Positions 551 through 58,378 of a stretch of 64,000 nt of DNA are shown one piece after another; the stretch's first letter is position 1, and each line of letters begins with the position of its first letter. This DNA is from Planctomycetota bacterium (GTDB lineage: Bacteria > Planctomycetota > PLA2 > JAEUHO01), in NCBI GenBank assembly GCA_965223505.1, contig CBDCWP010000021.1, positions 431,237 through 495,236 on the forward strand. The letters are read 5' to 3'. The position numbers and the translations under genes were made by a program. A model generated the notes under the pieces. It made no database searches. It saw only the letters and a program-made list of their open reading frames with translations, and was not told the DNA's origin.

Positions 551-1057
551 CTACTGCGGTCCGACGCTGATGAAGAAGAAGCCGTCGTCCACCGGGTTGC
601 CGGCGGCGTCGTTCACCGTGAACGAGAAGCTCCCGGCGCCGTCGAATCCGTTGGTGTGATAGACGGGCGATGCCGAGTTGGCGTGATCGACGACGAACGA
701 CGGACGGCCACCGAAGGGCTGGGTGTACGTCACGGTGTAGCTCCCGACGCCGTTGCGCGTCGCGGTGAACCCGTCTCCGTGGGAGACGACCCCGGTGGAG
801 GTCACGCCGCCCCATACGACGCGCAGATCCGTGCCGGAATCCCGTACGTAGCGCGCGTCGTGGTCGTGCGCGTTGCCCGTGTCCGCGATGTGCGCTTCGA
901 GCGCGGCGGTATTGGTGGCCTGTTGCGCCTCGAGCGCCGCGACACGGCTGCCCAGGTCGGTGCCGGTGCGCGTGCGTGCCTGGACGAACGAGGGCACGAT
1001 CAGCACCCCCACGACGGCGGCTACGAACAAGATGAGAGAAGTGCGTTTGCGTGTCAT
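551..1057 (-). CDS. Secreted protein with short coiled coil and fibre-tip-like beta domain
   Basis: AAGGAGG SD before ATG 1057; signal peptide; HIADTGNAHDHDARY; WGGVTSTG...GSYTVTYTQPF. Confidence 0.75.
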   Translation of the reverse strand: MTRKRTSLILFVAAVVGVLIVPSFVQARTRTGTDLGSRVAALEAQQATNTAALEAHIADTGNAHDHDARYVRDSGTDLRVVWGGVTSTGVVSHGDGFTATRNGVGSYTVTYTQPFGGRPSFVVDHANSASPVYHTNGFDGAGSFSFTVNDAAGNPVDDGFFFISVGPQ

Positions 1058-1237
1058 CGAATCCCTCCTTCCCGATGGAGTCTGTGTGCCGTAGATCATG
1101 TCGAATGCGCGGTTCGCTGCGCAATCAGAATGTGCCTCCAGCGATCGAATAGGGCAGTTTCAGGGCATCTTGAGGCCGTTACGTGTCAAGTCGTGGCCCC
1201 GCCGGACGGGCGATGCCCCGTGCGGTACGCTCTCGCG

Positions 1238-2377
1238 ATGCGCAGAACCCTCTCGATTTGGCTCCTGCTTCTCGCTGCATTCGGCAACGTTCACGGGAAC
1301 CCGGACGAGAACGCTCCCGTCCTTCGACCGTTGCCGCTCGTCGAGGGCGTGCGAGACGTGTTGAATCGCAAAGGCGACCTTGCGGCGCTGAAGAAGACCG
1401 ACGAGTACCGCCGCGCCAAGCACGTCGGTCTGGACCTGGCCGACTACGACGGCGATCCCGTCGTCGCGCACGGGATGCGCGATGGAACACTGTTCTACGT
1501 CTTCTACAAGAAGATCGAGCGCGCCTACGCACGGCGTGTTTGGGTCGTGCAGCGCATCAAACGCACCGAGCGCAACTGGCGGAAGGGCGTCGACGAGCCG
1601 GAGACGAAGGTCACCTACCAGGTCGAGGCGTTCAAGCTCTTCAGCGGTGAGCAGAAGCGCGGTGACCAGCATCACGGCGGCTACGGGATCAAGGACTTCG
1701 TTCGACGGGAGATCGTCAAGGAGTACGAGATCGGGTTCGCCGACATTCCGGGGCTCGCGGAAGGCGATCCGTGGCCCTGGAAGAAATCGACGCTGTTCGA
1801 GTACATCGCCCGCTACGGCCGAAGTGACGAGGTCTATCGAAAGGTCTCGTTCCACCGCTCGGTGACGTGGTCGCTGACGGTCACGCTCGACGCGGCCGGC
1901 AATTATCGCGTCTTGGCGCCCGAGCTGGGAATCGACGTGCCCGTGAAACGCACGGACCCCGCCCGCACGTTGCCCGAGCCCCTGACCGTCGGAGCGTCGC
2001 TGGTGCTCGTTCGCGGCGTCGGGCTCGAAGGCACGCGCGCGGACGAGGGCTGGTTCGACGACTACGTCGAGCGGGCGGGCAAGGTGCTGCAGGAGGAGCG
2101 CTTCGCGTCGGGCCACTCGAACACGATTCTCGCCGCCGGGTTGATGGCGAACCGGCGCAAGGACGGCTCGCTCAACACGCTGCAGACCCGGGCGGGCTTC
2201 GCCGGCCGCACCAAGGAAGGGATCGCCGTCGGTTCGCCGCGTTGGGCGGTGCTCAAGGCCTACGGCCAGCCGAAGGACGCGAAGGTCGGCGCGGCATGGT
2301 GGCACTACGGCGACATCGGGTTCTGGTTCGACGGATTGGACCGTGTGGGGCGCTTCTACGTTCGGGCGAAACGCTAG
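1238..2377 (+). CDS. Hypothetical secreted protein
   Basis: Signal peptide MRRTLSIWLLLLAAFGNVHG within ORF 656..2377; normal codon usage from 1238. Confidence 0.75.
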   Translation: MRRTLSIWLLLLAAFGNVHGNPDENAPVLRPLPLVEGVRDVLNRKGDLAALKKTDEYRRAKHVGLDLADYDGDPVVAHGMRDGTLFYVFYKKIERAYARRVWVVQRIKRTERNWRKGVDEPETKVTYQVEAFKLFSGEQKRGDQHHGGYGIKDFVRREIVKEYEIGFADIPGLAEGDPWPWKKSTLFEYIARYGRSDEVYRKVSFHRSVTWSLTVTLDAAGNYRVLAPELGIDVPVKRTDPARTLPEPLTVGASLVLVRGVGLEGTRADEGWFDDYVERAGKVLQEERFASGHSNTILAAGLMANRRKDGSLNTLQTRAGFAGRTKEGIAVGSPRWAVLKAYGQPKDAKVGAAWWHYGDIGFWFDGLDRVGRFYVRAKR

Positions 2378-2395
2378 GTCCTCTATCGCCGGTTC

Positions 2396-3343
2396 TCAAG
2401 CGCCGTCGGGCTTGCCATCCGTTTCCGGCTTCGGCGCGAACTGGAAGGGGACCGTCAAGTCGCCATTCATTTCGAAGGGCGTCGGTGCCGGGAGCGCGAT
2501 CTTCGCGTGCGTCGTTCCCTCGGGGGGCTGCACCGCAGCCCCGGCGGCGCCGCCTCACCCATACCGCATCGCCCCCTCGGCGAGCACGTCGCCGTCGGCG
2601 TTCAAGCACTGCCACGTCAGGCCGATGCGCTTGCCCCTGCGGTAGAGCGTGTTGCCCAGCCGCTTCTCCGCCTGGAAGACGACGCCGATCCGGTGCTGCC
2701 CCTTGCGCTCGAACGCACGCGCCTTCACCACGAGGCCGGTCCGCACGGCGCAGTGCGTCGTTTCGTCGGCCGTCACCTCGATTTCGCGGAAGGACGGCGA
2801 GGTCGTGGACCAGATCCACTCGGTTCCGTCCTTCTCCGCCTCGATGTGCCGGTAGCCGGTCACCTGGTACGAACCCACGGGCAACGGACGCTCGCGTTGC
2901 TCGTCATCGGGCGACCACCGCAGGCGGTACGTCTGTGACCTGTCGCCCTTGCGGAAGAGGAACAGCTCTCCATTGGCGATGGTCGACGTCACGAGCCCCG
3001 TCGGCGTCTCGTCGCCGTGCGAGGCCGTCGCAGACACGACGCAGGTCGGCTTGCCCTCTGCGTCGTTCTCGAGGTACTTGATCAAGGCCTCACGGGCCTC
3101 GGGCGGGGTGCCCGTTCACGAGGTTTCGGTCACCTGCCGCAGGAACGCGCGATCGGTCTCGAAGGTCGTGTCCGGCACGGTGTGGCACTTGGCGCAGGTG
3201 TGATGCCACGCTTCCTTCGCCTTGGCCGTCCAATCGACCGCGTCCTCGTCGGTCTTGTCGTCGGCGGCGAGCTCCATCATGCCGATGGAGAACCACGTGG
3301 CGACGACGACGGCGAGCATGCTTGCGCGTACCGGAATGCTCAT
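2396..3343 (-). CDS. Putative selenoprotein: exported c-type cytochrome (CAKCH) domain protein with two in-frame UGA (3116-3118, 2555-2557), 315 aa
   Basis: GGAGG SD, ATG 3343, signal peptide; ORFs 3116..3646 and 2555..3085 are in one frame; 52 more sense codons follow the second TGA up to TGA 2396-2398; a hairpin follows each UGA. Confidence 0.75.
2524..2542 (-). promoter_or_regulatory. SECIS-like hairpin
   Basis: GGGGCTGC-GGT-GCAGCCCC, perfect 8-bp stem, loop 20 nt 3' of UGA 2555-2557. Confidence 0.7.
3083..3101 (-). promoter_or_regulatory. SECIS-like hairpin
   Basis: CGAGGCC-CGTGA-GGCCTTG, loop 21 nt 3' of UGA 3116-3118. Confidence 0.55.
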
Positions 3344-3630
3344 GACGACCTCCGGCTTCCACGATAGCAGCCTGGTGCGGCGGCCCCGGAGGCGCGGCTG
3401 CGGACGGAGGCGAGGCTCGCCGCCGCCGCGGTGGGGGCGCCTCCCGCGCCGGCGGACAGGCCGTAGCCGCCCGTTAGGGCTCACGTGGAATTCAGCGGTC
3501 ATCGCGAGTGGCCGCTGCCGAGAACTTCGGACAGACTCCCGTTGCCGGTGCTCCTCTCTCACCCGGAGGAGCGCCGGTGTGGACTTGTCAGTGTGGGTTT
3601 GCGGTGCGTCTCCTAGGGGGGGACACACCC

Positions 3631-4248
3631 GTGTCAGTTGAGACAATCGCCACTGCGCGGCCCCGGCCTGCGCAGAGTGGCTTCAGTTTGCTCGAGGTGC
3701 TCATCGGCGCCGTCGTGCTCGCCGTCGCGTTGCTGGGCCATCTCGCCAGCACCGGAACCGAGCACCGTCTGGCGGAGCAGCAGCGCGTTCGCAGCCAGAT
3801 GCTGCAGACGACGCGCCAGTTCATGGAGCGGCTGCGCTCCGACGAGAACTGGGACACGCTCTACGATCGCCTGCGGACCGCGCAGTTCTCGCTGACCGTC
3901 GACGGCAAGGCCGGCACGGCGCTCGACAGCGGGAAGCTCGCGTGGCAGTTGACCGACTACTACCCGGAGATCGTCGTCCCCGAAACGCTCAGCGACATGC
4001 GAGTCCGCGTGGAGGTCCCCGCGACGCCCACGATGGTCAGTGGGGCACTCGGCATGCGGCTGCGCGAGGACGCGAGTCTCGAACAGTTCGGGCTCCCCGC
4101 GGATCTCGACGGAACCGGGACGATTACGTCCGATGTGTGCGACGACAGCTACGTCGCGCTGCCGGTGGTCGTCACGTTTCGCTGGGAGCTTCGCGGCCAA
4201 GCGGCGCGTGAGATGCGGGTCGCCACGTGGCTCAGGGGGAATCGATAG
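3631..4248 (+). CDS. Prepilin-type N-terminal cleavage/methylation protein (PilV-like)
   Basis: QSG|FSLLEVLIGAVVLAVALLG class III signal; GTG start inferred. Confidence 0.85.
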   Translation: MSVETIATARPRPAQSGFSLLEVLIGAVVLAVALLGHLASTGTEHRLAEQQRVRSQMLQTTRQFMERLRSDENWDTLYDRLRTAQFSLTVDGKAGTALDSGKLAWQLTDYYPEIVVPETLSDMRVRVEVPATPTMVSGALGMRLREDASLEQFGLPADLDGTGTITSDVCDDSYVALPVVVTFRWELRGQAAREMRVATWLRGNR

Positions 4249-4833
4249 ATGTCCAAGTCCACTGCTTCACAGCGCGGCTTCACGTACCTCGAAGTGCTGA
4301 TCGTCATGGTGATCGCGGGAACGGCGCTCGCCGGTCTCGGCAAGTCCCTCACGACCGCTCAGGATCTCTCGAGCGAGACGCACCTTCTGGGGCAGGCGCA
4401 TGCCGAGCATCGCAGGAATTTCGAGGCGATCGGCAACGCGTTGCGCTCCGTCGACATCAACACCCTCACCGGTTTCGTCGACAAGACGGTGGACGGCGAC
4501 GTGATCAGCGTCGCCGCCAACCCGACGTTCGCCCGCGTCATCGGCACGCAGGACGACGCTCGTGTCTACAGCGACACCGAAGAACTTCGCTGGGAGAGCG
4601 TTCCCACGGTCATCGACGGCATCGCGAACCCCGGCCAAGTGAGCTTGGTCACGCTCAACAACGACGGAACCGTCAAGAGCAAGGTCATGATCGGCAAGAA
4701 CGTACCGTCCGGCGGTTTCCTGCTGCGCCAGGAAGGGCGCACGCTCGTCATCGCACTCACCACCTACTACGTCCTTCCCGGCCGCGAGCCGTATGTCGTG
4801 AGCAGCGAAAGCGCTGTGTCGCTGAGGAACTAG
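4249..4833 (+). CDS. Prepilin-type protein (PilW-like)
   Basis: QRG|FTYLEVLIVMVIAG. Confidence 0.85.
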   Translation: MSKSTASQRGFTYLEVLIVMVIAGTALAGLGKSLTTAQDLSSETHLLGQAHAEHRRNFEAIGNALRSVDINTLTGFVDKTVDGDVISVAANPTFARVIGTQDDARVYSDTEELRWESVPTVIDGIANPGQVSLVTLNNDGTVKSKVMIGKNVPSGGFLLRQEGRTLVIALTTYYVLPGREPYVVSSESAVSLRN

Positions 4834-4835
4834 TC

Positions 4836-6080
4836 ATGGACACCAAATCGAAGAGCCGCCGGACCACCGAGTCGGGGATGATGATCGTGGTCGTCGCGTT
4901 CGTCGTCGTCTTGATGGCGGGCCTTTCCCTCGGCTTCTTGACCACGGGCCTTTCCGAGCGGCAGTCCGTCATCCACCACGAAACCAGCATGGAGGCCCTC
5001 GAGATCACGGAGATGGGTCTCGTGAAAGCCGAGTCGATGATCCGCGGACAGACCGCCAAGGACAGCGACTCGATCAGCGGCGCGTACGCCGACGGGACGT
5101 TCGAGGTGGGGATGGAGCACGACCCCGACCGGCCCCGTCGCTGGGTGCTGACCGGCGAGGCCTCGAAGGGGCACAGCCAGCGTCGCGTCGAGGTGGAGCT
5201 GCGCATCTTCTTCGACGGGCTGTTCAACCACGGCATGTTCGGGAAGCGCTCGCTGGACATCCGCTCGACCTCGACGACCGACTCCTACGACAGCCGTCTG
5301 GGTACCTATGCCTCGCAGGCCGTCAATGTCGACGCATACGGCGTGCACGCGGACGGCGATGCGCACGTCGGCAGCAACGGGAGCGTCACGCTGAGCGGTA
5401 CGGGAATCGTGCGCGGTGACGCCATCCCGGGTCCGCTGAGCACGACGACGGTGAACGGTACTTCCTCGGTCGATGGGGATCAGATCCCCCTGCAAGACGA
5501 GCTGGACGTCCCCGACATCCGCTACGCCGTGTTCGCCGACGCGCTGGCGAACAACAACAACGCGTCCATCGACGGCACGCTGCCCGGCGTGACCTACAAC
5601 GCCGCAACCTACAAGCTCAGCGTGAAGGCCGGCGCGACCCTCGTGCTCGACCCGGGGACGTACTTCTTCACCGATCTCGTCCTCACGGGCGGTTCCAACA
5701 TCGTTCTGACCGGCCCGGTCAAGTTCTACGTGACGGGACGCTTCAACCTGGGCGGCGGTTCCATCCTCAATAGCAGCATGCGGGCCAAGGACCTTCAGGT
5801 GTACGCGCACCCGTATGCGTTGCCCGCGGGCCACGCACCGGGCACCCACCAGCTGATCGTGAACGGCCAGTCCGCCACGGCGATGGCCGTGTACGCGCCC
5901 GAGCGCGACGTGCTGATCGACGGCGGCGCGCCGTTCTTCGGCGCCGTGGTCGGCCGCGACGTCGTCATCCAGGGTGATTCGCAATTCCACTACGACCGGG
6001 AGCTGGGCGACATCTTCGGCGAGAGCACGGCGACCGTCGAGCGCCTCTACTGGCGCGAGCTCTCGGTACCTGCACGGTAG
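4836..6080 (+). CDS. PilX-like minor pilin with C-terminal beta-helix/adhesin-like domain
   Basis: ESG|MMIVVVAF (no Glu5); DSYDS motif; FHYD..L...YWRE C-terminus. Confidence 0.75.
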   Translation: MDTKSKSRRTTESGMMIVVVAFVVVLMAGLSLGFLTTGLSERQSVIHHETSMEALEITEMGLVKAESMIRGQTAKDSDSISGAYADGTFEVGMEHDPDRPRRWVLTGEASKGHSQRRVEVELRIFFDGLFNHGMFGKRSLDIRSTSTTDSYDSRLGTYASQAVNVDAYGVHADGDAHVGSNGSVTLSGTGIVRGDAIPGPLSTTTVNGTSSVDGDQIPLQDELDVPDIRYAVFADALANNNNASIDGTLPGVTYNAATYKLSVKAGATLVLDPGTYFFTDLVLTGGSNIVLTGPVKFYVTGRFNLGGGSILNSSMRAKDLQVYAHPYALPAGHAPGTHQLIVNGQSATAMAVYAPERDVLIDGGAPFFGAVVGRDVVIQGDSQFHYDRELGDIFGESTATVERLYWRELSVPAR

Positions 6081-10072: not shown

Positions 10073-10831
10073 ATGGCCGCCAACGCATTCATGCCCAAGC
10101 TCGCGATCGCGTTGCTCGGGTGCCTCGTTCTCATCGGAGTCGTCATGGGCGATACCCACGTTCCCGTCGCCATCGAACCCGACGCCAAGCTGCCGGAGGG
10201 TGTCGAGGTCGCGACCTTCGCGCTCGGGTGATTCTGGGGCCCCGACACCCGGTTCGGGAGTCGCCCTGGTGTTCTTCGCACGCGCGTCGGCTATGCCGGC
10301 GGAACGAAGGACAAGCCGACGTACCGCAACCTCGGGGATCACACCGAGGCCATTCAGATCGAGTTCGATCCGAAGAAGATCAAGTACGAGGAGCTGCTCG
10401 ACATCTTCTGGTCGTCGCACGATCCCTTCGGGCGCTCGTGGTCGACGCAGTACAAAGCCGTGCTCTGGACCCACGACGAGGCGCAGGAGAAGGCCGCCAA
10501 GAATTCCATCGAGGCGCTCGCCAAGAAACACCAGGGGCGCCAGCCGACCACCGAGGTCGCCAAGGCCACCAAGTTCTGGATCGCCGAGGACTACCATCAG
10601 AAATACTCGCTGCGCCGTCACAAGGCGCTCATCGATGCGTTGCTCGACGGCGACGTCACCGAGGAGAAGATCCGCGAGAGCACAGTGACTACGCGTGCGA
10701 ACGGTTGGGTCGCCGGCCACGGCACGAAGGCCGAGATCGAGGCCGAAGCCAAGGCGCTCGGCCTGAGCGAGAAGGCGCTCGAGGCGCTGCGCCGCGTGCT
10801 CGGGGAGCGAATGCCCGTCGGCTGCGGGTAG
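10073..10831 (+). CDS. msrA: Selenocysteine-containing peptide methionine sulfoxide reductase A with N-terminal signal/anchor
   Basis: ATFALG-TGA(10229-10231)-FWGPD...RTRVGYAGG...HTEAIQIEFDP...FWIAEDYHQKY; the UGA replaces the GCFW catalytic Cys. Confidence 0.93.
10243..10263 (+). promoter_or_regulatory. SECIS-like hairpin of msrA
   Basis: CGAC-A-CCCG-GTT-CGGG-A-GTCG, loop 20 nt after the UGA. Confidence 0.7.
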
Positions 10832-15627: not shown

Positions 15628-15693
15628 CCGCCTTCGAGGTGCTCTGCATGCCGGCAGGCTGCACGGCGGCGGCGGGATCGCTACACTGCGGGC

Positions 15694-15990
15694 ATGTGCC
15701 GCAACATCAAGACGCTCTACAACTTCGCTCCCCCCGCAACCGAGGAGGAGGTGCGCGCTTCCGCCCTGCAGTACGTCCGCAAGATCAGCGGGATGAACAA
15801 GCCGTCCAAGGCCAACGAGGCGACGTTTCGCCGCGCGCTGGAGGAGGTCGTGGCCGCGTCGCACCGGCTCCTCGACGACCTGGTGACGAAGGCCGAGCCG
15901 CGCAACCGCGAGGCGGAGCGCGAGAAGGCGAGGGAGCGCGGCCGGAAGCGCGAGGCGGCCCTGCGAGCCCGCTATGCGCAGCGGGAGTGA
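15694..15990 (+). CDS. DUF2277 family protein
   Basis: MCRNIKTLYNFAPPATEEEVRASALQYVRKISG. Confidence 0.88.
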   Translation: MCRNIKTLYNFAPPATEEEVRASALQYVRKISGMNKPSKANEATFRRALEEVVAASHRLLDDLVTKAEPRNREAEREKARERGRKREAALRARYAQRE

Positions 15991-15993
15991 GCC

Positions 15994-16575
15994 ATGGGTA
16001 GATTCGCAGCGCTCGTACTCCTCGGCTTGGTCGCGACGGGCTGCTCCGTCCCCGTGGCGGATGTCACGCCCGGTCCGCCGGAGCTCGGCGACGCGATGGT
16101 CGTCGAAGTCACCGCCAACGGGACCGGCGGCCGCGTCGAGCTCGTCAAGACGAACGTTCACGCTCGTGCACGGGGAGCCGCGTTGGACCGCTATGCGGTC
16201 GCGATCAAGCGCTGGGAGCAAGACCGCCTCGACACCGGTTTGTTCACGGAGTACGCGGACCTCGAGCCGGGACAGACCGCATCGAACCTCGTCTATCACG
16301 ACTGGATGCCCGGCGAGCCCATGGTGCTCGACATCCGCTTCGACGGCGTGTCGTACTGGAAGGGGCGCGTCGGCACGAAGGACGGCGGGCCGAACCACGT
16401 CAAGCTCGTGTTCGAAAACGGCGAGCTGACCCGGCGCGTCGTGGAGACGGTCGACGGTCTGATGACCGACGGGAGCTGGATCGGCGGCGCCACCTGGACG
16501 CCCCCAGACGATCACGTGCCGTTCGAGCTCGGCAAGACCCGGCCCGATCTCAATCCGCGCCCCGTGCCTCGATGA
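15994..16575 (+). CDS. Hypothetical lipoprotein
   Basis: Lipobox LVATGC. Confidence 0.75.
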   Translation: MGRFAALVLLGLVATGCSVPVADVTPGPPELGDAMVVEVTANGTGGRVELVKTNVHARARGAALDRYAVAIKRWEQDRLDTGLFTEYADLEPGQTASNLVYHDWMPGEPMVLDIRFDGVSYWKGRVGTKDGGPNHVKLVFENGELTRRVVETVDGLMTDGSWIGGATWTPPDDHVPFELGKTRPDLNPRPVPR

Positions 16576-19937: not shown

Positions 19938-21353
19938 TCATGCCGGCACGACTCCGCTCGCGTTCTGAAGCGCGCGCACCTCCTCGAGCCGCCGCTCCTG
20001 TGCGGCGTCGCGGTAGAAGATGTTGAACGTGTCGAACGGGATCACGCGCCCGTCCGGATGCACGATGTGCACGCAGCTCTTCTTCACCGAACGCACGTCG
20101 AGGTTGTACGGGTCCATGAAGTCGACGATCAACACGCGGAAGACGTTGTCGTAGGACAGCTCGCTCAGCTCGATCTTGGGCAAGCAGCACAGGAGCTGCT
20201 GTAGCGAGTCCGCCGACGACTCGGGCGAGTGCGACGTCGAGAAGAGCTCCGTCAGGCGGCCGCGCAAGTCGACCTGCTCGTAGACGATCGTGCTCTCTTC
20301 GCCGCGCAGGAGGATCGTCGGGTCGACCATGCTCGAAAGCGGCAGCACCTTCTCCGGCGTCTTGAGCGCGTACCCCATCGCGACGCAATCCGGATGGCAC
20401 GGAACCGGCATCACGTCCTCGGGCTCGAAGAGCGCCGTCTGCGCGAGGATCTGCTGCCGGACCTCGGAAAGCGTGAGCCGGTCCTTCGCCGGGTCCACAC
20501 CCTCCAGGCGGCCGGCCGCCTGGATCGGCTGGAACGTGACGCCGCGCACGCAGCGCTGCTTCAGGGCTTCGTCGATGATCGTCCCGATCTCGTGGTCGTT
20601 GACGCCCTTCTTGAGCGTCACCACGAGCGTCGTGGAGAGGTTGAGCTCGTTCAGACGGTCCATGGTCTGCTCGCGGATGCGCCGAAGGTCCGCGCCGCGA
20701 AGGTCGCGCAGCGCGCCCTCCTCGAACGAGTCGAACTGCAGGTAGAGCTCGAACCCCGGCATGTACGTCGCGAGCCGCTCGGTGAACTCTCGATCCTCCG
20801 CGATCCTGATGCCGTTGGTGTTGACCATGAGGTGCTTGATCGGGCGCGCCTTGGCGGCGTCGAGGATCTCGAAGAACTGCGGATGGATCGTCGGCTCGCC
20901 GCCGCTGATCTGCACCACGTCCGGCTCGCCCTCGTTCGCCACGCAGGCGTCGAGCATGCGCTCGATGTGCGCGAGCGAGCGGTGCGAACCGTGATGCGGC
21001 GACGACTCCGCGTAGCAGACCGGGCACGTGAGGTTGCAGCGGTCCGTCACCTCGACCAGCGTGACGCAACCGTGCTGCTCGTGATCGGTGCAGATGCCGC
21101 AGTCGTACGGGCAGCCGAAGCGCGTCTCGGTGTTGAAGCGCTTGGGGAGCTGACCGTGCTTGAGCGTTCGCCGTGTCCACCGGTGGTACTCGACGTCGGT
21201 CGAGACCAGCACCCGCTCGTGCCCGTGCTCGGGGCAACGCTTCAGCATGTAGACGCGGTCGTCGCGTTCCACGATCTTCGCTTCGACCTTGCGTAGGCAC
21301 GTGGAGCAGATGCTGTTGGTCAGCTCGAGGAAGAGATCAGGCCGATTCGCCAT
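19938..21353 (-). CDS. Radical SAM protein, Tes/MJ0619 (tetraether lipid synthase)-like family
   Basis: CSTC...CPEHG, CPYDCGICTDH, CNLTCPVC, GGEPT, PCHPDC, SCVH...GRVIPF. Confidence 0.85.
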   Translation of the reverse strand: MANRPDLFLELTNSICSTCLRKVEAKIVERDDRVYMLKRCPEHGHERVLVSTDVEYHRWTRRTLKHGQLPKRFNTETRFGCPYDCGICTDHEQHGCVTLVEVTDRCNLTCPVCYAESSPHHGSHRSLAHIERMLDACVANEGEPDVVQISGGEPTIHPQFFEILDAAKARPIKHLMVNTNGIRIAEDREFTERLATYMPGFELYLQFDSFEEGALRDLRGADLRRIREQTMDRLNELNLSTTLVVTLKKGVNDHEIGTIIDEALKQRCVRGVTFQPIQAAGRLEGVDPAKDRLTLSEVRQQILAQTALFEPEDVMPVPCHPDCVAMGYALKTPEKVLPLSSMVDPTILLRGEESTIVYEQVDLRGRLTELFSTSHSPESSADSLQQLLCCLPKIELSELSYDNVFRVLIVDFMDPYNLDVRSVKKSCVHIVHPDGRVIPFDTFNIFYRDAAQERRLEEVRALQNASGVVPA

Positions 21354-22086
21354 GGCGACTCCCGGAGGTTCGATCGAGACGGCCGAGGCTTCGCAGAGCG
21401 ATGACGCAGCCGATCGCGCTCGCGATCTGGATGGCGCTCAGGAAGAGCCACGTGTCGCGGGGCTTGATGAACTCGATGCAGAATCGATAGGCGGCGTACG
21501 CCGCGATGAACGTGCGGAACAGCGCGCCGTTGGGTCGATCCGGATTGCGGCGAGCGAAGAGCAGGATGCCCAGCCCCACGAGGAAGACGATGTCGTAGAT
21601 CTGGGTCGGGTGGCGGGCCACGCCGTCGCCGAAGTCGACGCCCCACGGGAGCGACGTTGCGATCCCGTGCGTCTTGTCTTCGAGTCCCGTCAGGAAGCAG
21701 CCGACGCGCCCGATTGCCATCCCCGTGAGCAGCGGGGCGACGCAGGCGTCCCCTGTGGAGTGACGGATGCCCATCGTCTTCTTGGCGACCTCGACCCCGA
21801 TCCATCCGCCGAGCAGCCCGCCGACGATCGTCTTGCCGGTCAGGAGCATCTCCAGGTTCCACTCGTCGGGGTGCTCGAGGAACGAGAGCGCCTTCGAGCC
21901 GAGCAGCGCGCCGACGATCGCGCCCGCCAGGATCCAAACCGTCTGGTCGGGCGGCACGGCCGCGCGTGCGTAGCGCTTGCGCGTGGCGAGGTACAGCTGG
22001 AAGCCGACCCCGTACGCGAGGACCTCGAACACCGGGTGCGGATGCAGCGTCGTTCCGCAGCACTCGAGCTCGAAGGGGAATTTCAA
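21337..22086 (-). CDS. Prolipoprotein diacylglyceryl transferase (Lgt)-family protein
   Basis: GKTIVGGLLGG, AIGRVGCF, HPTQIY, YRFCIEF. Confidence 0.85.
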   Translation of the reverse strand: MKFPFELECCGTTLHPHPVFEVLAYGVGFQLYLATRKRYARAAVPPDQTVWILAGAIVGALLGSKALSFLEHPDEWNLEMLLTGKTIVGGLLGGWIGVEVAKKTMGIRHSTGDACVAPLLTGMAIGRVGCFLTGLEDKTHGIATSLPWGVDFGDGVARHPTQIYDIVFLVGLGILLFARRNPDRPNGALFRTFIAAYAAYRFCIEFIKPRDTWLFLSAIQIASAIGCVIALRSLGRLDRTSGSRHGESA

Positions 22087-22261: not shown

Positions 22262-22570
22262 CTACTCGCCGCCGAAGCGGTTGCCGACGCGCAGCGGCGC
22301 GTCGTTCATCGGCACGTGGCACTGGCGGCACATCGAGCGCTCCTCGTGCGGGGTGACCGGCACGGCCGAGTCCTTCGCGTGGATCTCACTGTGGCAACGG
22401 ATGCAGGCCTCTTCCTTGTAGTCCTGGTGCGGCACCATCGGCGGCGCGCCGAACGACGAGACGTTGGGCGGGGCGGCGTCTTCCGCGCCGAACACCGGCA
22501 CCAGCAGGAAGCCGACGATCAGAAAGCCGGCGATGACGGCGATGAGCTTGATGCGGTCACTTTGGTTCAT
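22262..22570 (-). CDS. napB: Short NapB-like dihaem cytochrome c
   Basis: GAPPMVPH, CIRCH, PH, CRQCHVP; directly downstream of napA. Confidence 0.8.
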   Translation of the reverse strand: MNQSDRIKLIAVIAGFLIVGFLLVPVFGAEDAAPPNVSSFGAPPMVPHQDYKEEACIRCHSEIHAKDSAVPVTPHEERSMCRQCHVPMNDAPLRVGNRFGGE

Positions 22571-22579
22571 CGGTCCCTC

Positions 22580-24907
22580 CTAGCTCGCCGCCGCGATCTT
22601 GACCGCGCACTTCTTGTAGTCGGGTTGCTTCGACATCGGGTCGATGGCGCCCAGCGTCACACGGTTGATGAGCCGGTCCTCGTCGAAGAACGGCACGTAG
22701 ACGTAGCCGCGCGGAACCCGGATGCGCTTGTCGAGCGACACCGGCAACTCCATCTTCCCGCGCCGCGACGTGATGACGATCCGGGGGCCGCTCTTCTGGA
22801 TCCCCAGGTCCTTGGCATCGTCGGGGTGCAGCCACGCCAGGGCCTCCGGAACGGTGCGGTGCAGATGGGGAACGCGACGCGTCATCGTGCCGGTATGCCA
22901 GTGCTCGAGCACGCGACCGGTGCAGAGCCAGAAGGGGTACTCCACGTCAGGCGATTCGGGCGGGGGTTCGTAGGGCCGTGCCCAGACGACCGCGCGCCCG
23001 TTCTTGCGTCCGTAGAACTTGACGCCGTCGGGCGTGTCCTTCGGCACGTAGGGGTCGTACGCGGCGTTGAATCGCCAGGGCGTCTCCTTGCCGTCGATCA
23101 CGGGCCAGCGCATGCCGCGCGTCGCCAAGAGCTCCTCGTAGCTCGCGACGTCGTGCTTCGTCCCGAGCGTGCACTCCCGATATTCGTTGTAGAGGTGCTT
23201 CTCGAGATGGTCGTCCCAGGCCTTCGGGAACAGCGTCTCGAACCCCATGCGCCGCGCAACTTCGACGTACTGCCAGACGTCGGGCCGCGCGTCGCCGGGC
23301 GGGTCGACCAGCTTGGCGAAGTGATGCGTGCGACGCTCGGAGTTGCCGAACATGCCCTCCTTCTCGACCCACGCGGCCGAGGGCAGGATCAGGTCGGCGG
23401 CGGCCGTCGTCTCGGTCGGGTACATGTCCGACACGATGATGAACACGTCGTCGCGGTCCCGCGCCTCTTCGACGAACCGGTGAAGGTCCGGCATCGATTG
23501 GAACGGGTTCGTCGTGTCGACCCAGATCGACTTGATCTTGCCCGCGGCGACCTTGTCCCACATCGCCTTGGCGTGCGTGAGCGGGCTGTCCTCGGGCGAC
23601 GGAATCGTGCCGGGCTCGAGGTCCCAGAGCTCCTCCATCTCCTTGCGGTGCTCGGCGTTCATCACGACGCGGTCCGACGGGAGCCGGTGCGTGAAGGTGC
23701 CGACCTCGCGGCACGTGCCGCAGGCGCTCGGCTGTCCGGTCAACGAGAACGGGCTGTTGCCGGGCTCGGAGACCTTGCCGGTGAGGAGATGGAGGTTGTG
23801 AACGAGGTTGTTGATCCACACACCGCGCGTGTGCTGGTTCATGCCCATCGTCCAGAGCGACGTGCAGCGCAGCTCCGGGTTCCCATAGTCGGCAGCGAGC
23901 TTCTCGATGTTCGCCGCCGAGATGCCGATGTCCGCGGCGACCTTTTCCGGCGCATAGTCGGCGAGGAAGGCCTCGTAGCCCTCGAGGTCGATGGGGCGGT
24001 CCGTCGTTCCGCCGCCGTTCGCCCCGAAGTCGGTCTGCTTGAACTCGAGGTGCGTCTTGACGAACGGGGCGTCGATCTTGCCGTCGCGGACGATGCAGTG
24101 CGCGATGGCGTTGGCCAGCTTCAGGTCCGTGTGCGGCTCGAAGATGTGCGTCTCGTCGGCGCCTTCGTCCGTCATGTGCCGGTACGTCTGCAGGCTGATG
24201 ATGCGCACGTTCGGATCGGCGTGGCGGCGCCGGAGGATCCGGTTGAAGAGCATGGGGTGCATCTCGGCCATGTTGGCGCCCCACAGGAAGAACCGGTCGG
24301 CCGCCTCGAAGTCGTCGTAGCAACCGGGGGGCTCGTCGATGCCGTAGGTCGTGAGATAGCCGACGACCGCCGACGCCATGCAGAGGCGCGCATTCGGTTC
24401 GATGTTGTTGCTCCGGATGCCGGCCTTCATCCACTTCAGCGCCGCGTAGCCCTCCGGGATGGTCCACTGGCCCGACCCGAAGAGCGCGACCGCGTCCTTG
24501 CCGTGCTCGGCGATGAGGCCCGTCCACCGCTCGGCGATCATGTCGAGGGCTTCGTCCCAGGAAATGTCCACGAGCTTGCCGTCCTTGCGCAGCTGCGGCC
24601 GGGTCAACCGGTCTTCGCCGTAGAGGACCTGCGCGAGCCCGTAGCCCTTCGTGCAGAGCAGGCCCTGGTTGACCGGCGCCTTGACGTCGCCGCGAACCGA
24701 CACGATCTTGCCGTCCTTCACGGCGACCTCCGTGCCGCAACCCGTCCCGCAGAAGCGGCACGGCGCCTTCGACCAGGTCGCGCCGTCGTCGGACGGCACG
24801 GGCGACGAGGGATCGGCGAACAGCCGGTCGACCAGCGAAGGTGCGACGAGCGCGCCTGCGCCGCCGATGGCCGCGTACTTGATCAGGTCCCGCCGACTCG
24901 CATCCAT
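22580..24907 (-). CDS. napA: Periplasmic nitrate reductase catalytic subunit
   Basis: Tat SRRDLIK; CRFCGTGC; GSGQWT; NARLCMAS; SLTGQPSACGT; QPDYKKCAV. Confidence 0.93.
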   Translation of the reverse strand: MDASRRDLIKYAAIGGAGALVAPSLVDRLFADPSSPVPSDDGATWSKAPCRFCGTGCGTEVAVKDGKIVSVRGDVKAPVNQGLLCTKGYGLAQVLYGEDRLTRPQLRKDGKLVDISWDEALDMIAERWTGLIAEHGKDAVALFGSGQWTIPEGYAALKWMKAGIRSNNIEPNARLCMASAVVGYLTTYGIDEPPGCYDDFEAADRFFLWGANMAEMHPMLFNRILRRRHADPNVRIISLQTYRHMTDEGADETHIFEPHTDLKLANAIAHCIVRDGKIDAPFVKTHLEFKQTDFGANGGGTTDRPIDLEGYEAFLADYAPEKVAADIGISAANIEKLAADYGNPELRCTSLWTMGMNQHTRGVWINNLVHNLHLLTGKVSEPGNSPFSLTGQPSACGTCREVGTFTHRLPSDRVVMNAEHRKEMEELWDLEPGTIPSPEDSPLTHAKAMWDKVAAGKIKSIWVDTTNPFQSMPDLHRFVEEARDRDDVFIIVSDMYPTETTAAADLILPSAAWVEKEGMFGNSERRTHHFAKLVDPPGDARPDVWQYVEVARRMGFETLFPKAWDDHLEKHLYNEYRECTLGTKHDVASYEELLATRGMRWPVIDGKETPWRFNAAYDPYVPKDTPDGVKFYGRKNGRAVVWARPYEPPPESPDVEYPFWLCTGRVLEHWHTGTMTRRVPHLHRTVPEALAWLHPDDAKDLGIQKSGPRIVITSRRGKMELPVSLDKRIRVPRGYVYVPFFDEDRLINRVTLGAIDPMSKQPDYKKCAVKIAAAS

Positions 24908-25041
24908 ACCGCCCTCCTCGTGGCTTCGACCAGCTTGCGAACTCTACACGCCGCGTGCCCATCCAAGGGACGAAGGAATGACGCAGCTCGGCCCGAACGC
25001 GTGGGGGCCAGTCCCCAGGGATGGGGACCCTTCCGCAGCCG

Positions 25042-26759: not shown

Positions 26760-28040
26760 CTACTCGATCACCTTCAGCGCGACCGTGTCGCGCTTGCCGT
26801 TGCGGATGCGCACGACGTCGACCTTGGTTCCGATCTTCTGCGTGAGCCGGAACCAAGCCTGGAAGTGCTGTTCGCTGTCGAAGTCCTTCTTGCCGGCGAC
26901 GGAGACGACGACGTCGCCCTTCCGCAGCCCCGCCTGCGCGGCGTTGCGGCCCGTGTACGCGTTGTCGCCCCACGTGACGAGGTAGCCGATGCGGAACGCG
27001 AACTCGTCCGCCGGAATCCCGAGCTGCCGCTTCTGGTCGGGGTTCAACGCGCGCCCGCCGAATCCGGGCTTGGGTGACTGCGGCCACTTGGCCGCGCGCC
27101 AGGCGTACGTCTTCGGCGTCATCTCCTTCCAGCCCTTGCCGAGGCGCAACGTCGCGGTCTTCGACGCGTGGCCATTCGTCCACGTGATCTCGAGCGAGGT
27201 GGACTTCGCCGGCGCTTCGTGGAGCACCCGTTGCACGTCGCCGAAGGTGCGCACGACGGCGCCGTTCATCGTCGTGATCCGGTCGCCTGCGACAAGACCT
27301 GCATTGGCCGTCGACGACCCGTCCTCGACCGCGCGCACGAGCGTCTGGTCGTCCCGGTGGAGGGAAAGGCCGGCCTGAATCGGGTCGGGCCACATCCATC
27401 GATCGTCCTTCTTGAATCGCTTGGCCTTCATCGCGTCGCGAATGCGGCCTTCGTAGACCATGTGGCAGTGAAAGCACTCGGGCTTCTTCGAGCGCTGCTT
27501 CCAGTGGGGGATGTCCTCGATCACCGACGCCGGTCGCCGCTTCGGTGGCTTGGGGTCCTTCTGATAGGCCGCGTGATCGCCGAGGGTGTCGTTCAGGACC
27601 TTGACGAAGGCCTCCATCGACAGATGGGACTGGGGGTCGGTCCAGTCGCGTCCTCCGTAGGTGTGGTAGATCGTGCCGTCCGCGTTCATCAGCAGCGTGC
27701 AGAACGTGAGGTCGTAGTGGAAGTCGAAGGTATTGAGGTCCACGCCGAGCATGTTCGTCACGCGGACGCAGATGTAGTTCTTCGCAGCCTCGGCGAGAGC
27801 CTTGGGCGCACGGACAACCTGCCCGTCGAAGGACGCACAGTCCTTTCACGGCTCTCAGCGAAAGACGATGAGCAGCGGTTTTCCTTCCTTTCGGGCCTGG
27901 TCACGTGCTTCGTCGAGATCAGTGATCCACTCGATGGCGCCCTCCGCGTCGGCGTCGTCGGTGAGCGGAACGAATGAGAGCCCGATGACCAGCGCGGCGG
28001 CGAGTACGGCCGGCGCTGTGCATGCCTGAATGCGACCCAT
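26760..28040 (-). CDS. Trx7/PDZ domain-containing selenoprotein with U-x-x-U-x-x-C motif (426 aa)
   Basis: WITDLDEARDQARKEGKPLLIVFR-TGA(27855-57)-EP-TGA(27846-48)-KDCASFDGQV, in frame with ORF 26760..27761 (DLNTFDFHYDLT, YGGRD, CFHCH, PDZ-like repeats). Confidence 0.88.
27810..27845 (-). promoter_or_regulatory. Tandem SECIS-like hairpins
   Basis: AAGGAC-TGTGC-GTCCTT (27829-27845) and ACGGGCA-GGT-TGTCCGT (27810-27826). Confidence 0.6.
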
Positions 28041-28800: not shown

Positions 28801-31446
28801 CTACTTGACCATGAACGCGGTGTCGAAGCGCTCCGGGTCGTGCAGCCGCAGCAAGAAGCGTCCGATGCCGGCCAGGCCCGTCATGTAGCCCGGGTCGTAG
28901 GCGTGGGCGCCGATCGCGGTCTTGACCTTTCCGTTCTGTACGAGGTCTTCGGCGAAGCGCTTCGCGATCGCGAGCATGGCGGGGTTCTTGGTGCGCCGGT
29001 ACTGATCGATGAACAGCTCCGCGTTGCCCGAGATGCCGTGGCACTGGCATCCGGAGACGCGCGCCGTGCGCCCGTCGCGCAGGTTCGCGGAGATGCACTT
29101 CCAAAGGGCTTCGACGTACGGCCCTTCCTTCCCGTCCTCGAGGTGGTCGTTGAGCGCCATGAAGAGCAACGCGTTGCCCGGGCTGCCGTGGCACCACTGC
29201 ACACGGAAGTCACCCGGCTTGCGCGGCGGGTGCATCTTCGTCCACTGCCAACCGCCCTTGCCGTCGTCGACCGCGGTCCTCTCGACGAACACGGCCGCCT
29301 TCTTCGCGAGCTCGAGGTAGGCGTCGTCTTTCGTTCGTAGGTGCAGGTGCAGCAGGAAGTAGCCGATGCCGGCGGCGCCGTGCGAGAAGCCGATGTACGT
29401 GCGATCCGATCCGGGGGCGACCGGCCAGCTCACGTGTTCGTCCCCGACGACGGCGTGCGTCAGCAAGCTCTGCCCGAGCGCCGTCGCGCGCGTCACGTAC
29501 GCGTCGTTCTCGGTGGCGGCGTGGAGGTTCAACAGGAAGATCCCGACGCCCGCCGCGCCCGAGATGACGTCGTGAGCCTTCGGTTCTCCGAGGTGCCTGG
29601 CGCAGTCCTCCGCCGCCTTCAGGTACGCCTCGTCCTTGGTGCTGCGCCAGGCGTCGAGATACACCTGACCCACGCCGGCAAGACCGGTGTAGAGACCCGG
29701 CTCGTCCCGGAACGTCTTGCGCGCCGCACGGATGCGCGCATCCGCGAGCGTGCGCCACGACGCGTCGTTCGTCGCCGCGTACAGGTCGAAGAAGAACAAC
29801 GCGATGCCGGCGTCGCCCGTGTAGACGTCGCCCTTGCCGGTCTCGGCGGTCCGAATGTGACGGCCGACCTGCAGGGCGTAGTCGAGGTAGGAACCGGGAG
29901 CGGCCTGTTCTGTCTTCGCGCCCGCCGTTACCGGCGCCGGCGGGGCGACTTCCGTACCCGCGGCGAACGTGACCACGACGTCGCCGCTTCCGCCCCGCGC
30001 GAAGTTGGCCTTCACGTGCAAGTAGCGCTTGCCGCGGTCCTGTTCGATCGCCCACACCGGTTCGAGCGTCTCGATGTCCTTGCCGCCCCACTTCGCGGAG
30101 GTGATACGGACGTCCTTCACCTCGAATTCGTCGGGGAGCTCCACGCGGTCGTAGAGCTTCATCGCCATCGTGCGGGTCTTCTCGTCGAATCGACGAAACG
30201 GGTCCGCGCCCCAGAGATACGTGTACCGGCCCTGAAGCGAGATCGCGATGCGGAGCGTCTTCCCGTCGCGCATGACCTTCGTGCGCAACGGCAGGACGTC
30301 GTCGGAGACCTCGTACGCCTGGTACGAGGGATCGCCGTAGAGCACCCCGCCGGTCGCGCCCTCGAGCATCATGTGCCGGACGGCATCGACCTCCGAGCGC
30401 GCCTTGCGCTCGCCGTCCACCACGTCGGGCACCGTGATGCCGGGCTCGCCGAAGCCCAGATAGCCCATGGTGATCTTGTCGTAGTCGTTGCGGCGAATCG
30501 CACCCAGCGTCTCACCGGCCAGGGCGCGCGCGAAGTCGATCGACATCTCGGGACCCGCGGGGCGCGGGTTGACGTACGCCGTGTAGCCGACGACACCCGT
30601 GCGGATCATCGCCAGCGCGAAGCTCTTCTTCGCGTCGACCTCCTTGATGCGATTGACGAACTCGCCGGCCTGATACTCCCGCTCCGGATACTTGAGCGTC
30701 ACGCCGGTGTGACACGCGTAGTTGAAGGCGATGGACGGGAACAGGTTGAGCTTGTCGACGTCTTCCGCTCGGGGTCCCGACACGACCTCCCACGGCATGC
30801 CGTGGCCACCCATGATGATCGCGCCGCAGCCCTCGAACGAGGGCAGGTGCTCGTCGATGAAGTCCTGGTCGCGCCCGTGCTCGTCCTTCGGCTTGAAGTA
30901 GATCTCGCGCATCGGGCGTACGAGGGCGCCCGAGCGGAACTCCGTGTCGTGCGCGCGGGCCGGCCACGAGCCGCCGGTCACCGCGCCGCGTCCGACCCTC
31001 GGCGCGTGCTTCTTCGTCGGCGCTTTGATGATGTTCTCGACGAACCGGATGGCTTCCATCCCGGTCGCGCCGGTGATGAAGCCGTACTCGAAGTCGACGA
31101 ACGGGTCGTCGTCGACCTTCGTCGCCATCTTCAGGATGCGCCGCACCGAGTTGACGTGAATCTGCTCCGGACGCAGCACGAACACGACGTATCGGGGCTC
31201 GAACCGTCGAAGGAGCGGCAGGGCGGCCTCCGGCTTCTCCGGATCGAACGGCTGGACGCCCAGCTTGTCCGGTCTTGCATCCCGAAGCTTGCGCGCCGCC
31301 TGGTAGTAGTCGCTGTCGCCGGGGCTGCAAAAGACGACGTAGTCGCCTCGCTTCGGCCGGTCGGGCTCGGCGACCGCACCTGTTCCCCCGCCCACGACGA
31401 CGACACCCAAGACCAGCCATAGCGATATCCGAGTCATGCGATCCAT
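28801..31446 (-). CDS. Secreted C25/clan CD peptidase-like domain fused to LanC-like domain
   Basis: Signal peptide; GGHG...YACHTG; GLYTGLAG, DVISGAAG, GFSHGAAG, WCHGSPG, CQCHGISG. Confidence 0.82.
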   Translation of the reverse strand: MDRMTRISLWLVLGVVVVGGGTGAVAEPDRPKRGDYVVFCSPGDSDYYQAARKLRDARPDKLGVQPFDPEKPEAALPLLRRFEPRYVVFVLRPEQIHVNSVRRILKMATKVDDDPFVDFEYGFITGATGMEAIRFVENIIKAPTKKHAPRVGRGAVTGGSWPARAHDTEFRSGALVRPMREIYFKPKDEHGRDQDFIDEHLPSFEGCGAIIMGGHGMPWEVVSGPRAEDVDKLNLFPSIAFNYACHTGVTLKYPEREYQAGEFVNRIKEVDAKKSFALAMIRTGVVGYTAYVNPRPAGPEMSIDFARALAGETLGAIRRNDYDKITMGYLGFGEPGITVPDVVDGERKARSEVDAVRHMMLEGATGGVLYGDPSYQAYEVSDDVLPLRTKVMRDGKTLRIAISLQGRYTYLWGADPFRRFDEKTRTMAMKLYDRVELPDEFEVKDVRITSAKWGGKDIETLEPVWAIEQDRGKRYLHVKANFARGGSGDVVVTFAAGTEVAPPAPVTAGAKTEQAAPGSYLDYALQVGRHIRTAETGKGDVYTGDAGIALFFFDLYAATNDASWRTLADARIRAARKTFRDEPGLYTGLAGVGQVYLDAWRSTKDEAYLKAAEDCARHLGEPKAHDVISGAAGVGIFLLNLHAATENDAYVTRATALGQSLLTHAVVGDEHVSWPVAPGSDRTYIGFSHGAAGIGYFLLHLHLRTKDDAYLELAKKAAVFVERTAVDDGKGGWQWTKMHPPRKPGDFRVQWCHGSPGNALLFMALNDHLEDGKEGPYVEALWKCISANLRDGRTARVSGCQCHGISGNAELFIDQYRRTKNPAMLAIAKRFAEDLVQNGKVKTAIGAHAYDPGYMTGLAGIGRFLLRLHDPERFDTAFMVK

Positions 31447-31571
31447 CCTCTCATGTAGAGGACATCCCGTCGGGGGCCTTTCGGGTCCGAACCACCGAGC
31501 GCGTCGACCCTCGATTCCACGGGCCCGGAGGATCTGGTATCACCGGGGCCCCCGCCGTGGAGGAGGCCCTC

Positions 31572-40189: not shown

Positions 40190-40193
40190 GTCG

Positions 40194-43220: not shown

Positions 43221-43224
<4 letters not shown>
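41896..43224 (-). CDS. sufD: Fe-S cluster assembly protein SufD
   Basis: [26 protein letters not shown]. Confidence 0.95.
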
Positions 43225-43973
<749 letters not shown>

Positions 43974-43984
43974 TTGGGTGGTTC

Positions 43985-45478
<1,494 letters not shown>

Positions 45479-45482
45479 GTCG

Positions 45483-58377: not shown

Positions 58378-58378
58378 C

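Follow-up and report, generated by a model that had tools for sequence, protein, structure and literature searches.

A predicted haem c protein with two distant, probable selenocysteine codons in a planctomycete genome fragment

Gene organization and reading frame

The stretch of DNA analyzed here (hereafter the window) is 64,000 nt long and covers positions 431,237 to 495,236 of contig CBDCWP010000021.1, from the Planctomycetota assembly GCA_965223505.1. This report concerns one gene on its minus strand, at 3343..2396, whose reading frame contains two internal TGA codons. A first-pass annotation, made from the sequence alone, had proposed that the gene codes for a 315-aa exported protein of cytochrome c type, belonging to a family that was not recognized, in which both TGA codons specify selenocysteine (Sec) and each is followed by its own hairpin. 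The elements that define the gene are as follows, in window coordinates.

2396..3343, minus strand: whole gene, 315 sense codons (two of them TGA) and a terminal TGA, by direct translation
3349..3353, minus strand: Shine-Dalgarno-like GGAGG, 5 nt upstream of the ATG at 3343-3341, read from the sequence
3182..3196, minus strand: CxxCH haem c attachment motif (C50, C53, H54), present in 32 of the 32 aligned family members that cover the motif
3116..3118, minus strand: TGA codon 76, predicted to be read as Sec, in the context QVTETS-U-TGTPPEAREALIKYL; TGA in four of four DNA sequences
2555..2557, minus strand: TGA codon 263, predicted to be read as Sec, in the context MRYG-U-GGAAG; TGA in four of four DNA sequences
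2399..2554, minus strand: tail of 52 codons past codon 263 (GGAAGAAVQPP...LTVPF...), which aligns with the tails of read-through homologues
2396..2398, minus strand: terminal TGA, a real stop, with a weak downstream hairpin and no conservation past codon 300

Translation from the ATG opens with MSIPVRASMLAVVVATWFSIGMMELAADD..., reaches C50-A-K-C53-H54 and then the first TGA, beyond which the frame is that of the open reading frame (ORF) at 2555..3085. The two candidate Sec codons are separated by 187 codons, and a gap of 18 nt lies between the terminal TGA (2398-2396) and the stop codon of a convergent ORF, 656..2377. All of these elements, from the ribosome-binding site and the haem motif to the 52-codon tail and the 18-nt gap, lie where the first-pass annotation had placed them.

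The G+C content of the window is 67.5%. When the ATG frame is scanned in 90-nt segments, with starts from 3340 down to 2500, the G+C of third codon positions (GC3) is 0.83–1.00 in every segment, while that of the other two codon positions is 0.40–0.80. The scan spans both TGA codons, and the GC3 periodicity shows no frame change at either of them. The public database holds only the 176-aa middle piece of the protein (P0002), so public annotation does split this gene, as had been expected of gene callers.

Related loci and selection

A scan of representative genomes gave 13 pattern matches, among which were three related loci (L001, L002 and L003), all from metagenome-assembled genomes (MAGs) of Planctomycetota. 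When translated with TGA as Sec, these loci specify colinear proteins of 308–315 residues that run from signal peptide to tail and are 51–52% identical to the window protein. The expectation that homologues would keep TGA at codons 76 and 263 is borne out in all three, and in each the flanking protein is conserved on either side of both codons. The immediate contexts are invariant, E-T-S-U-T-G-T at the first site and Y-G-U-G-G-x-A-G-A-x-V-Q-P-P at the second (where the x after G-G is Ala or Val), and the residues between the first UGA and a TTG at codon 87 include six (T77, G78, T79, P81, R84 and A86) that are the same in all four loci. The tail is also conserved in the three related loci, as ...A-R-F-V-F-P-x-P-x-F...G-x-L-T-V-P-F. 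At L003 the terminal stop is a non-TGA codon (TAA or TAG) and the two internal stops stay TGA. Homologues that end at these two positions with TAA or TAG, followed by nothing conserved, would have spoken for ordinary stops, and none of the three genomic loci has this pattern.

Ratios of nonsynonymous to synonymous substitution rates (dN/dS) were calculated by the Nei-Gojobori method over the six pairs that can be formed from the four DNA sequences. The values were 0.26–0.59 for codons 31-75, before the first UGA, 0.32–0.71 for codons 96-262, between the two, and 0.20–0.35 in all six pairs for codons 264-300, past the second, while the signal peptide and the last 15 codons gave values of about 1 or were saturated. 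Since dN/dS is lowest past the second UGA, that stretch is the most constrained coding part of the gene. No gene neighbours are shared across the four loci, and the differing neighbourhoods therefore offer no functional or operon clue.

The wider protein family

A word-indexed search with the read-through protein retrieved 23 proteins, 22 of them foreign, each 173–182 aa in length and spanning the middle 54–58% of the query. All 22 foreign proteins share the C-terminal motif M-x-Y-G, and one of them starts farther upstream (...AREALIAYL). A profile built from the four full-length proteins was then run against 1.84 billion cluster representatives, and matched 359 proteins at E ≤ 1e-3, of which 207 remained at E ≤ 1e-10. 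The column counts given below refer to 170 foreign proteins realigned to this profile, namely the 22 from the word-indexed search and those listed from the profile search.

Exact ends directly before column 263 are found in 143 of the 170 proteins, and 140 of these end with -YG. Another five are N-terminal pieces that end ...ET(S/T) directly before column 76, and three are internal partials. Column 76 is missing from 141 rows (140 foreign proteins and P0002), 90 of which begin at reference positions 75–94, where the first usable start codon past a stop at codon 76 would be found. Every foreign protein that does cover column 76 (30/30) has Cys there. Eleven of these 30 end before column 263 in the profile alignment and nine more end there in a MAFFT alignment; the remaining ten cross the column with a tail that aligns to the window tail, and carry Gly, Ser, Thr, Arg, Pro, Asn, Ala or Glu in place of the second Sec. 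Cys, which the first-pass annotation had named beside TGA as a residue to look for in homologues, is therefore aligned with codon 76 and not with codon 263 (0/10). Three family states can be distinguished, Cys/other, Cys/stop and stop/stop. None of the 170 foreign proteins pairs a stop at 76 with a residue that reads through 263.

Neither Pfam nor NCBIfam has a family for the read-through protein, its three pieces or 33 family members, which agrees with the first impression that the family is an unrecognized one. The sole match in an NCBIfam scan at E ≤ 1 was to CytoC_perox (E 0.078, 12 bits versus a cut-off of 150). A search of the ESM Atlas with the Cys-type homologue P0040 produced one lead, at 0.75, and nothing usable, and a cluster look-up of ten homologues gave no informative names. 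One longer family member (P0142, 642 aa) has a Cys76-type haem and immunoglobulin (Ig)-like module, ending in -YG, behind a 420-residue N-terminal region without a Pfam match, and this extra region could hint at a substrate or partner.

Hairpins downstream of the two UGA codons

The bSECISearch model of a bacterial selenocysteine insertion sequence (SECIS) calls for a stem-loop shortly 3' of the UGA, with G or U in the apical loop and a spacing of roughly 16–37 nt. Two SECIS-like hairpins are found in the gene.

3083..3101, minus strand: hairpin 1, with a 7-bp stem (CGAGGCC/GGCCUUG) and a 5-nt loop, CGUGA, starting 21 nt past the first UGA
2524..2542, minus strand: hairpin 2, with an 8-bp stem (GGGGCUGC/GCAGCCCC) and the loop GGU, starting 20 nt past the second UGA

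A hairpin for each UGA, with loops at 21 and 20 nt, had been described in the first-pass annotation, and both are present as described and conserved in all four loci. The stem of hairpin 1 is kept throughout, with three one-sided changes that preserve pairing (G-U/A-U, C-G/U-G). In hairpin 2, six of the eight pairs are unchanged in all four loci, a seventh is replaced by G-U in L003 and lost in L001 (G-G), and the eighth has undergone a compensatory change from C-G to A-U in L001 and L002. The latter arises from an Ala-to-Glu replacement at codon 270 combined with a synonymous GTG-to-GTT change at codon 271.

Codon choice in these segments is also conserved. Three rare codons, CGT (Arg84), TTG (Leu87) and GCT (Ala269), are fixed at hairpin positions in four of four loci, and across 19 window genes identified with confidence these account for 8.0% of Arg, 8.7% of Leu and 5.3% of Ala codons, respectively. 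The mean proportion of synonymous differences is 0.27 in codons 77–95 versus about 0.5 elsewhere. When the 1285 TGA triplets of the window were ranked, hairpin 2 fell within the top 1.5%. By themselves, the two hairpins are no more than moderately unusual for DNA of such high G+C content. The hairpin past the terminal TGA is weak, its score being reached at 35% of TGAs (RNAfold z +0.69).

Selenocysteine use in the window

Two other genes of the window, both members of known selenoprotein families, have in-frame TGA codons at the catalytic positions.

10229..10231, plus strand: Sec codon of msrA (FALG-U-FWG); TIGR00401 match past the TGA, E 8e-32, from profile position 10
27846..27857, minus strand: two Sec codons (U-E-P-U) of a Trx7/PDZ (seleno)protein; NF041199 match, E 1e-103, above cut-off, from profile position 31

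The first-pass annotation had taken msrA as a sign of Sec use, and the gene does carry Sec at the catalytic GUFWG. The Sec form of msrA occupies 10100-10831 (plus strand), with a hydrophobic N-terminal stretch ahead of G-U-F-W-G and a loop, GUU, at +20 nt from the UGA. The Trx7/PDZ gene (26760-28010, minus strand) has TGA codons at 27857-27855 and 27848-27846 within V-F-R-U-E-P-U-K-D-C; the NF041199 match starts right after them, and a single hairpin with the loop AGGUU lies 25 nt past the second UGA. In the table of a 2026 review this family is given as CxxU with one Sec (PMC13188914). The hairpins of msrA and Trx7/PDZ, with their GUU and AGGUU loops, are similar to those of the gene described here, which have GGU and CGUGA loops. 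TGA is also used as a normal stop, as at the end of truB, where it follows a profile match over the full length. Global reassignment of TGA is ruled out, as it terminates both truB and the predicted selenoprotein gene itself, the latter without a comparable hairpin.

Two other candidates were considered and rejected. A 'tRNA-???' reported by ARAGORN at 47828-47911 (minus strand) has a four-base anticodon, lies inside ORF 46109-48004 and has no Rfam support; it was rejected as a tRNA-Sec and is probably a false positive. The segment at 15628-16575 (plus strand), which could be joined across a TGA into a further selenoprotein, consists of two adjacent genes, the second of which starts at an ATG one codon past the TGA and has a lipoprotein-like leader.

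We infer only from the other selenoprotein genes in the window that this genome encodes Sec machinery. Comparison of the sequences makes it very likely that UGA76 and UGA263 are both decoded as Sec and not as another amino acid, and 3343..2396 (minus strand) probably represents one gene for a single exported protein of 315 residues, in which each of the two UGA codons specifies Sec and has its own SelB-type hairpin, so that the interpretation given in the first-pass annotation is supported.

Domain architecture and the haem site

The predicted protein can be divided into three parts.

3266..3343, minus strand: probable Sec-type (secretory) signal peptide, about codons 1-26, judged by eye, with a modelled helix at 5-20 and similar N-termini in homologues
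3065..3235, minus strand: three-helix haem c domain, codons 37-93, with CAKCH and Sec76; AlphaFold2 helices at 38-48, 62-71 and 81-93
2444..3046, minus strand: Ig-like beta-sandwich, codons 100-300, broken by TGA263; AlphaFold2 predicted local distance difference test score (pLDDT) above 90

The signal peptide claimed by the first-pass annotation is plausible in that a basic residue is followed by a hydrophobic stretch, a judgement made by eye. An AlphaFold2 model based on a 72-sequence alignment had a mean pLDDT of 89.3 and a predicted template modelling score (pTM) of 0.82. Within the haem domain the pLDDT was 92–96 for residues 41-70, 80 for residues 71-80 (around codon 76) and 93 for residues 81-90. 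Codon 263 falls in a Y-G-U-G-G turn between strands 253-258 and 266-271. Four strands (266-271, 279-283, 291-293 and 297-299) lie past it within the sandwich, with pLDDT values of 92–98, and a product ending at residue 262 would therefore be an incomplete domain. Foldseek searches of the PDB with both models found generic tandem Ig-like folds only (DUF3823, macroglobulin MG domains and Fabs), at template modelling (TM) scores of 0.14–0.30.

The description of the protein as cytochrome c-type is based on the CxxCH motif, the modelled helices and matches to known families that are all below threshold. A profile search of the PDB recovered class I cytochromes c at sub-threshold level only (E 0.03–2, best 0.032), and Pfam PF00034 was matched by one of 33 family members, at E 0.15, so that membership of the cytochrome c family is without statistical support. 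These sub-threshold matches span the N-terminal CxxCH helix and the C-terminal helix, with ...R-e-a-L-i-a-Y-L... of the family aligned to ...E-R-Q-D-L-V-A-Y-L... of mitochondrial cytochrome c. The domain resembles class I cytochromes c in its order of elements, as a signal peptide and the CxxCH helix are followed by a middle helix, a loop that bears the ligand and, at the C-terminal side, an amphipathic helix with R-x-A-L-x-x-Y-L. It differs from them in its candidate sixth ligand, which is Cys or Sec with no conserved Met or second His, and in being fused to a beta-sandwich.

In the alignment of 33 sequences, C50, C53, H54 and C76 are the only His, Met, Cys, Lys or Tyr residues conserved in the haem domain, and no conserved Met or second His is present. 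C76 precedes the Arg of the conserved R-x-A-L-x-x-Y-L helix by 8–13 residues, and in mitochondrial cytochrome c the ligand Met80 precedes the matching Arg by 11 residues. Because residue 76 is the sole conserved candidate besides the CxxCH His, and because its position parallels that of Met80, the sixth haem ligand is most likely Cys76, or Sec76 in the window subfamily.

Comparison with known systems and possible function

MccSep (GSU2937/GSU2936) of Geobacter sulfurreducens is described as a periplasmic multihaem cytochrome c selenoprotein with polysulfide reductase activity (PMC13510729). Its haem domain is N-terminal and helical, an Ig-like sandwich forms the C-terminal part, the catalytic haem is His/Cys-ligated, and Sec325 is carried on an Ig-like D-G-U-P loop, 3.6 Å from the Cys that ligates haem 2 (PMC13510729). 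Both the Sec and the ligating Cys are essential for the reduction of polysulfide (and of selenite), and selenium-dependent catalysis at a haem centre was first described with this enzyme, in 2026; His/Cys ligation is given there as a catalytic feature of several sulfur-metabolising multihaem enzymes (PMC13510729).

The window protein would be like MccSep in being a c-type haem protein of the periplasm and in having a helical haem domain followed by an Ig-like sandwich, and Sec on a Gly-containing loop of the latter (Y-G-U-G-G compared with D-G-U-P). Annotation splits both genes at a UGA, and in both a SECIS-like hairpin lies no more than about 30 nt away. In MccSep the partner of the Sec is a conserved Cys that ligates or adjoins the haem iron, a pair that the Cys/stop members of the present family match directly, while in the window subfamily the position equivalent to the haem-ligating Cys is Sec. 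The two differ in that MccSep has five CxxCH motifs and one Sec, and the window protein one CxxCH and two Sec. PDB sequence and Foldseek searches returned no match to MccSep, whose entries are perhaps too recent for the copies searched.

As the domain logic of MccSep recurs here in a one-haem format, a mechanism can be proposed. The exported protein would consist of a signal peptide, a three-helix haem c domain and an Ig-like sandwich completed by the 52 residues past codon 263. Sec76 would ligate the haem iron or adjoin it, and Sec263 would swing in from the Ig-like domain, giving a redox centre of Se-Se or Se-S type. Reduction or oxidation of the substrates, which are probably compounds of sulfur or selenium, would take place there, with electrons entering or leaving through the haem to periplasmic carriers. 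By analogy with MccSep, we tentatively favour this mechanism, in which such compounds are converted by a Se-Se or Se-S centre located at a c-type haem, as a possibility that falls short of an even chance. A fuller version is more doubtful still. In it, Sec76 would be the distal axial haem ligand, making this the first natural selenolate-ligated cytochrome c, and Sec263 would bond reversibly at the iron, either as Se-Se or as Se-S-substrate. As a one-haem counterpart of MccSep, the protein would serve polysulfide, selenite or thiosulfate-type redox in Planctomycetota, and within the family it would be the Cys-ligated form that gained the catalytic Sec and, after it, the ligand Sec.

A different function is conceivable for the same two-Sec protein, with the Sec residues away from the haem, either as a structural or thiol-oxidoreductase-like diselenide or as ligands of another metal, and the haem serving in electron transfer only or the CxxCH being unloaded. 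The ten homologues that have neither Sec nor Cys at 263 keep Cys76, and so the role of Cys76 would be independent of residue 263; the lack of a significant match to a cytochrome c family points the same way. However, the haem domain contains no other conserved candidate for the sixth ligand, residue 76 is where class I cytochromes place theirs (in a weak alignment), MccSep is a precedent with the same domain logic, and the pTM of 0.82 suggests fixed packing between the two domains. We regard this arrangement as possible, if somewhat unlikely, and the comparisons that follow refer to Sec76 at the haem.

His/Cys-ligated haems are known in sulfur metabolism from SoxAX, TsdA and DsrJ, and the carrier arm of SoxY ends in G-G-C-G-G. 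The family of the window protein is like these in that a conserved Cys probably ligates the haem and an Ig-like domain carries a chalcogen nucleophile within G-x-G-G, which is a lead at the level of motifs. This likeness suggests that covalent chemistry of sulfur or selenium may take place at the haem. The glycine-rich motif is internal here, unlike that of SoxY, which is C-terminal, and no Sox or Tsd model of Pfam or NCBIfam was matched.

A Sec-ligated haem would not be the first of its kind, because a natural UGA-encoded Sec replaces the Cys haem ligand in P450 enzymes of ncCYP subfamily M, whose database entries are truncated (PMC11703216). The P450 has a b-type haem with Sec on the proximal side, and in the window protein a c-type haem would have His as its proximal and Sec as its distal ligand, the latter ligation being predicted; a selenolate-ligated c-type cytochrome would thus be a first.

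The cytochrome c selenoproteins catalogued in the 2026 selenoproteome review include ExtKL (NF040886), the GSU2204 family (NF041027) and the octahaem tetrathionate reductase family (TIGR04315) (PMC13188914). They resemble the window protein as CxxCH proteins with an in-frame UGA, and differ in being multihaem or outer-membrane proteins with one Sec. Neither these three models nor any other NCBIfam '(seleno)protein' model was matched, even at E ≤ 1. The window family was not found in the passages covered from the table of that review (PMC13188914), a term search of the main text of the deep-Sep and BSepDB papers found no mention of cytochromes or Planctomycetes, and no description of it was found in full-text searches of literature on selenoproteins, haem ligation and Planctomycetota. 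The recoding mechanism would be ordinary bacterial Sec insertion; it is the protein family that is uncatalogued.

With at least 359 protein clusters, nearly all of them present in databases as fragments, this would be a new selenoprotein family, and the truncated entries could be repaired by means of a model that has Sec at both sites. Two distant Sec codons with their own conserved hairpins would make the gene a natural test of repeated SelB-dependent events on one mRNA. Sec263 has no Cys counterpart in the homologues seen, which points to a specific requirement for selenium at the haem centre, and a 30-kDa, one-haem version of MccSep would be a far simpler system in which to study selenium-haem catalysis.

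Other readings of the UGA codons

Several observations weigh against Sec insertion at both sites. No tRNA-Sec was detected in the 64-kb window by ARAGORN or Rfam, and no selA, selB or selD by NCBIfam models (39 + 12 ORF segments). Rfam found no SECIS or tRNA-Sec in the window at gathering thresholds or in 2300-3400 at E ≤ 10, and its two hits were at chance level. RNAfold z-scores against dinucleotide shuffles were -0.84 and -0.68 for the two UGA hairpins, which is not significant, and hairpin 1 ranks only within the top 7.1% of window TGA triplets. The compensatory change in hairpin 2 is common to L001 and L002 and may therefore be one event. With no Cys at column 263 in the ten read-through homologues, the usual Sec/Cys signature is missing at the second site. 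At the level of DNA the evidence comes from four sequences in total, and it is by extension from these that the approximately 140 metagenomic -YG homologues are presumed to stop at TGA.

The absence of sel genes from the window, the hairpin stabilities and the lack of Cys at column 263 would also fit an mRNA in which a near-cognate tRNA inserts a standard residue (Trp, Cys, Gly or Arg) at the UGA codons, or in which these are read in response to some other recoding signal. However, the z-test is insensitive here, since the Sec hairpin of msrA itself scores -0.12. Read-through with a standard residue also conflicts with the standard Sec/Cys signature at column 76, where all 30 non-TGA homologues have Cys, and with the conservation of hairpins at a SelB-type distance in which rare codons are fixed. 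In the same DNA, MsrA and Trx7/PDZ occur as Sec forms with Sec at known catalytic positions, and TGA also serves as an ordinary stop. We consider this explanation improbable.

It is also conceivable that both TGA codons are true stops and that the locus gives three products, namely a 75-residue exported cytochrome, a 176-residue protein initiated at TTG87, and at most a small peptide encoded by the tail. Gene callers produce exactly these pieces, and the TTG at codon 87 is kept in all four loci with GAGG 3 nt upstream. Nevertheless, six residues between the first UGA and this TTG are invariant in the four loci, the Cys-type homologues are continuous through column 76 (30/30), and ten homologues are continuous through column 263. 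The middle piece would have no signal peptide, and its sandwich would lack the four strands that are under the strongest purifying selection. This makes separate products very improbable. The remaining explanation, a pseudogene or TGA codons that arose as sequencing or assembly errors, can be put aside as having next to no likelihood: two in-frame stops do resemble a decaying gene, but identical TGA codons occur in three of three independent MAG loci, one and the same C-terminal residue is shared by 143 of the 170 foreign gene calls, the segments that flank each stop have dN/dS values well under 1, and no frameshifts are found.

Other genes of the window

Upstream of the predicted two-Sec gene and divergent from it, 3508-6080 (plus strand) contains pseudopilin-like genes with prepilin-type N-terminal methylation motifs, together with a DUF7305 protein; this run is not conserved beside the homologues in L001, L002 and L003. 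A radical SAM gene at 19941-21437 (minus strand) matches the model 'radical SAM (seleno)protein TrsS' at E 2e-97, below its cut-off, and tetraether lipid synthase Tes at E 3e-82. The gene at 22583-24943 (minus strand) specifies the periplasmic nitrate reductase NapA (E 3e-291). Past its TAG stop, at 22265-22579 (minus strand), a 105-codon segment stays open in the NapA frame, with coding-like GC3 and no family match, and is probably an adjacent small gene.

The large protein encoded at 28804-31539 (minus strand) has a C-terminal domain that resembles lanthionine cyclases, with matches to LanM/LanL models (E 1e-50 to 1e-47) that fall below the cut-offs. A SUF cluster occupies 39821-45496 (minus strand) and includes genes for a SufT-like protein, a SufS-type cysteine desulfurase and SufB; the best match of the desulfurase is to the model for family 2A encapsulin cargo desulfurases (E 8e-201, below cut-off). 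Finally, the adjacent F420 biosynthesis genes cofD (E 3e-90) and cofC (E 5e-52) are found at 57232-59035 (plus strand).

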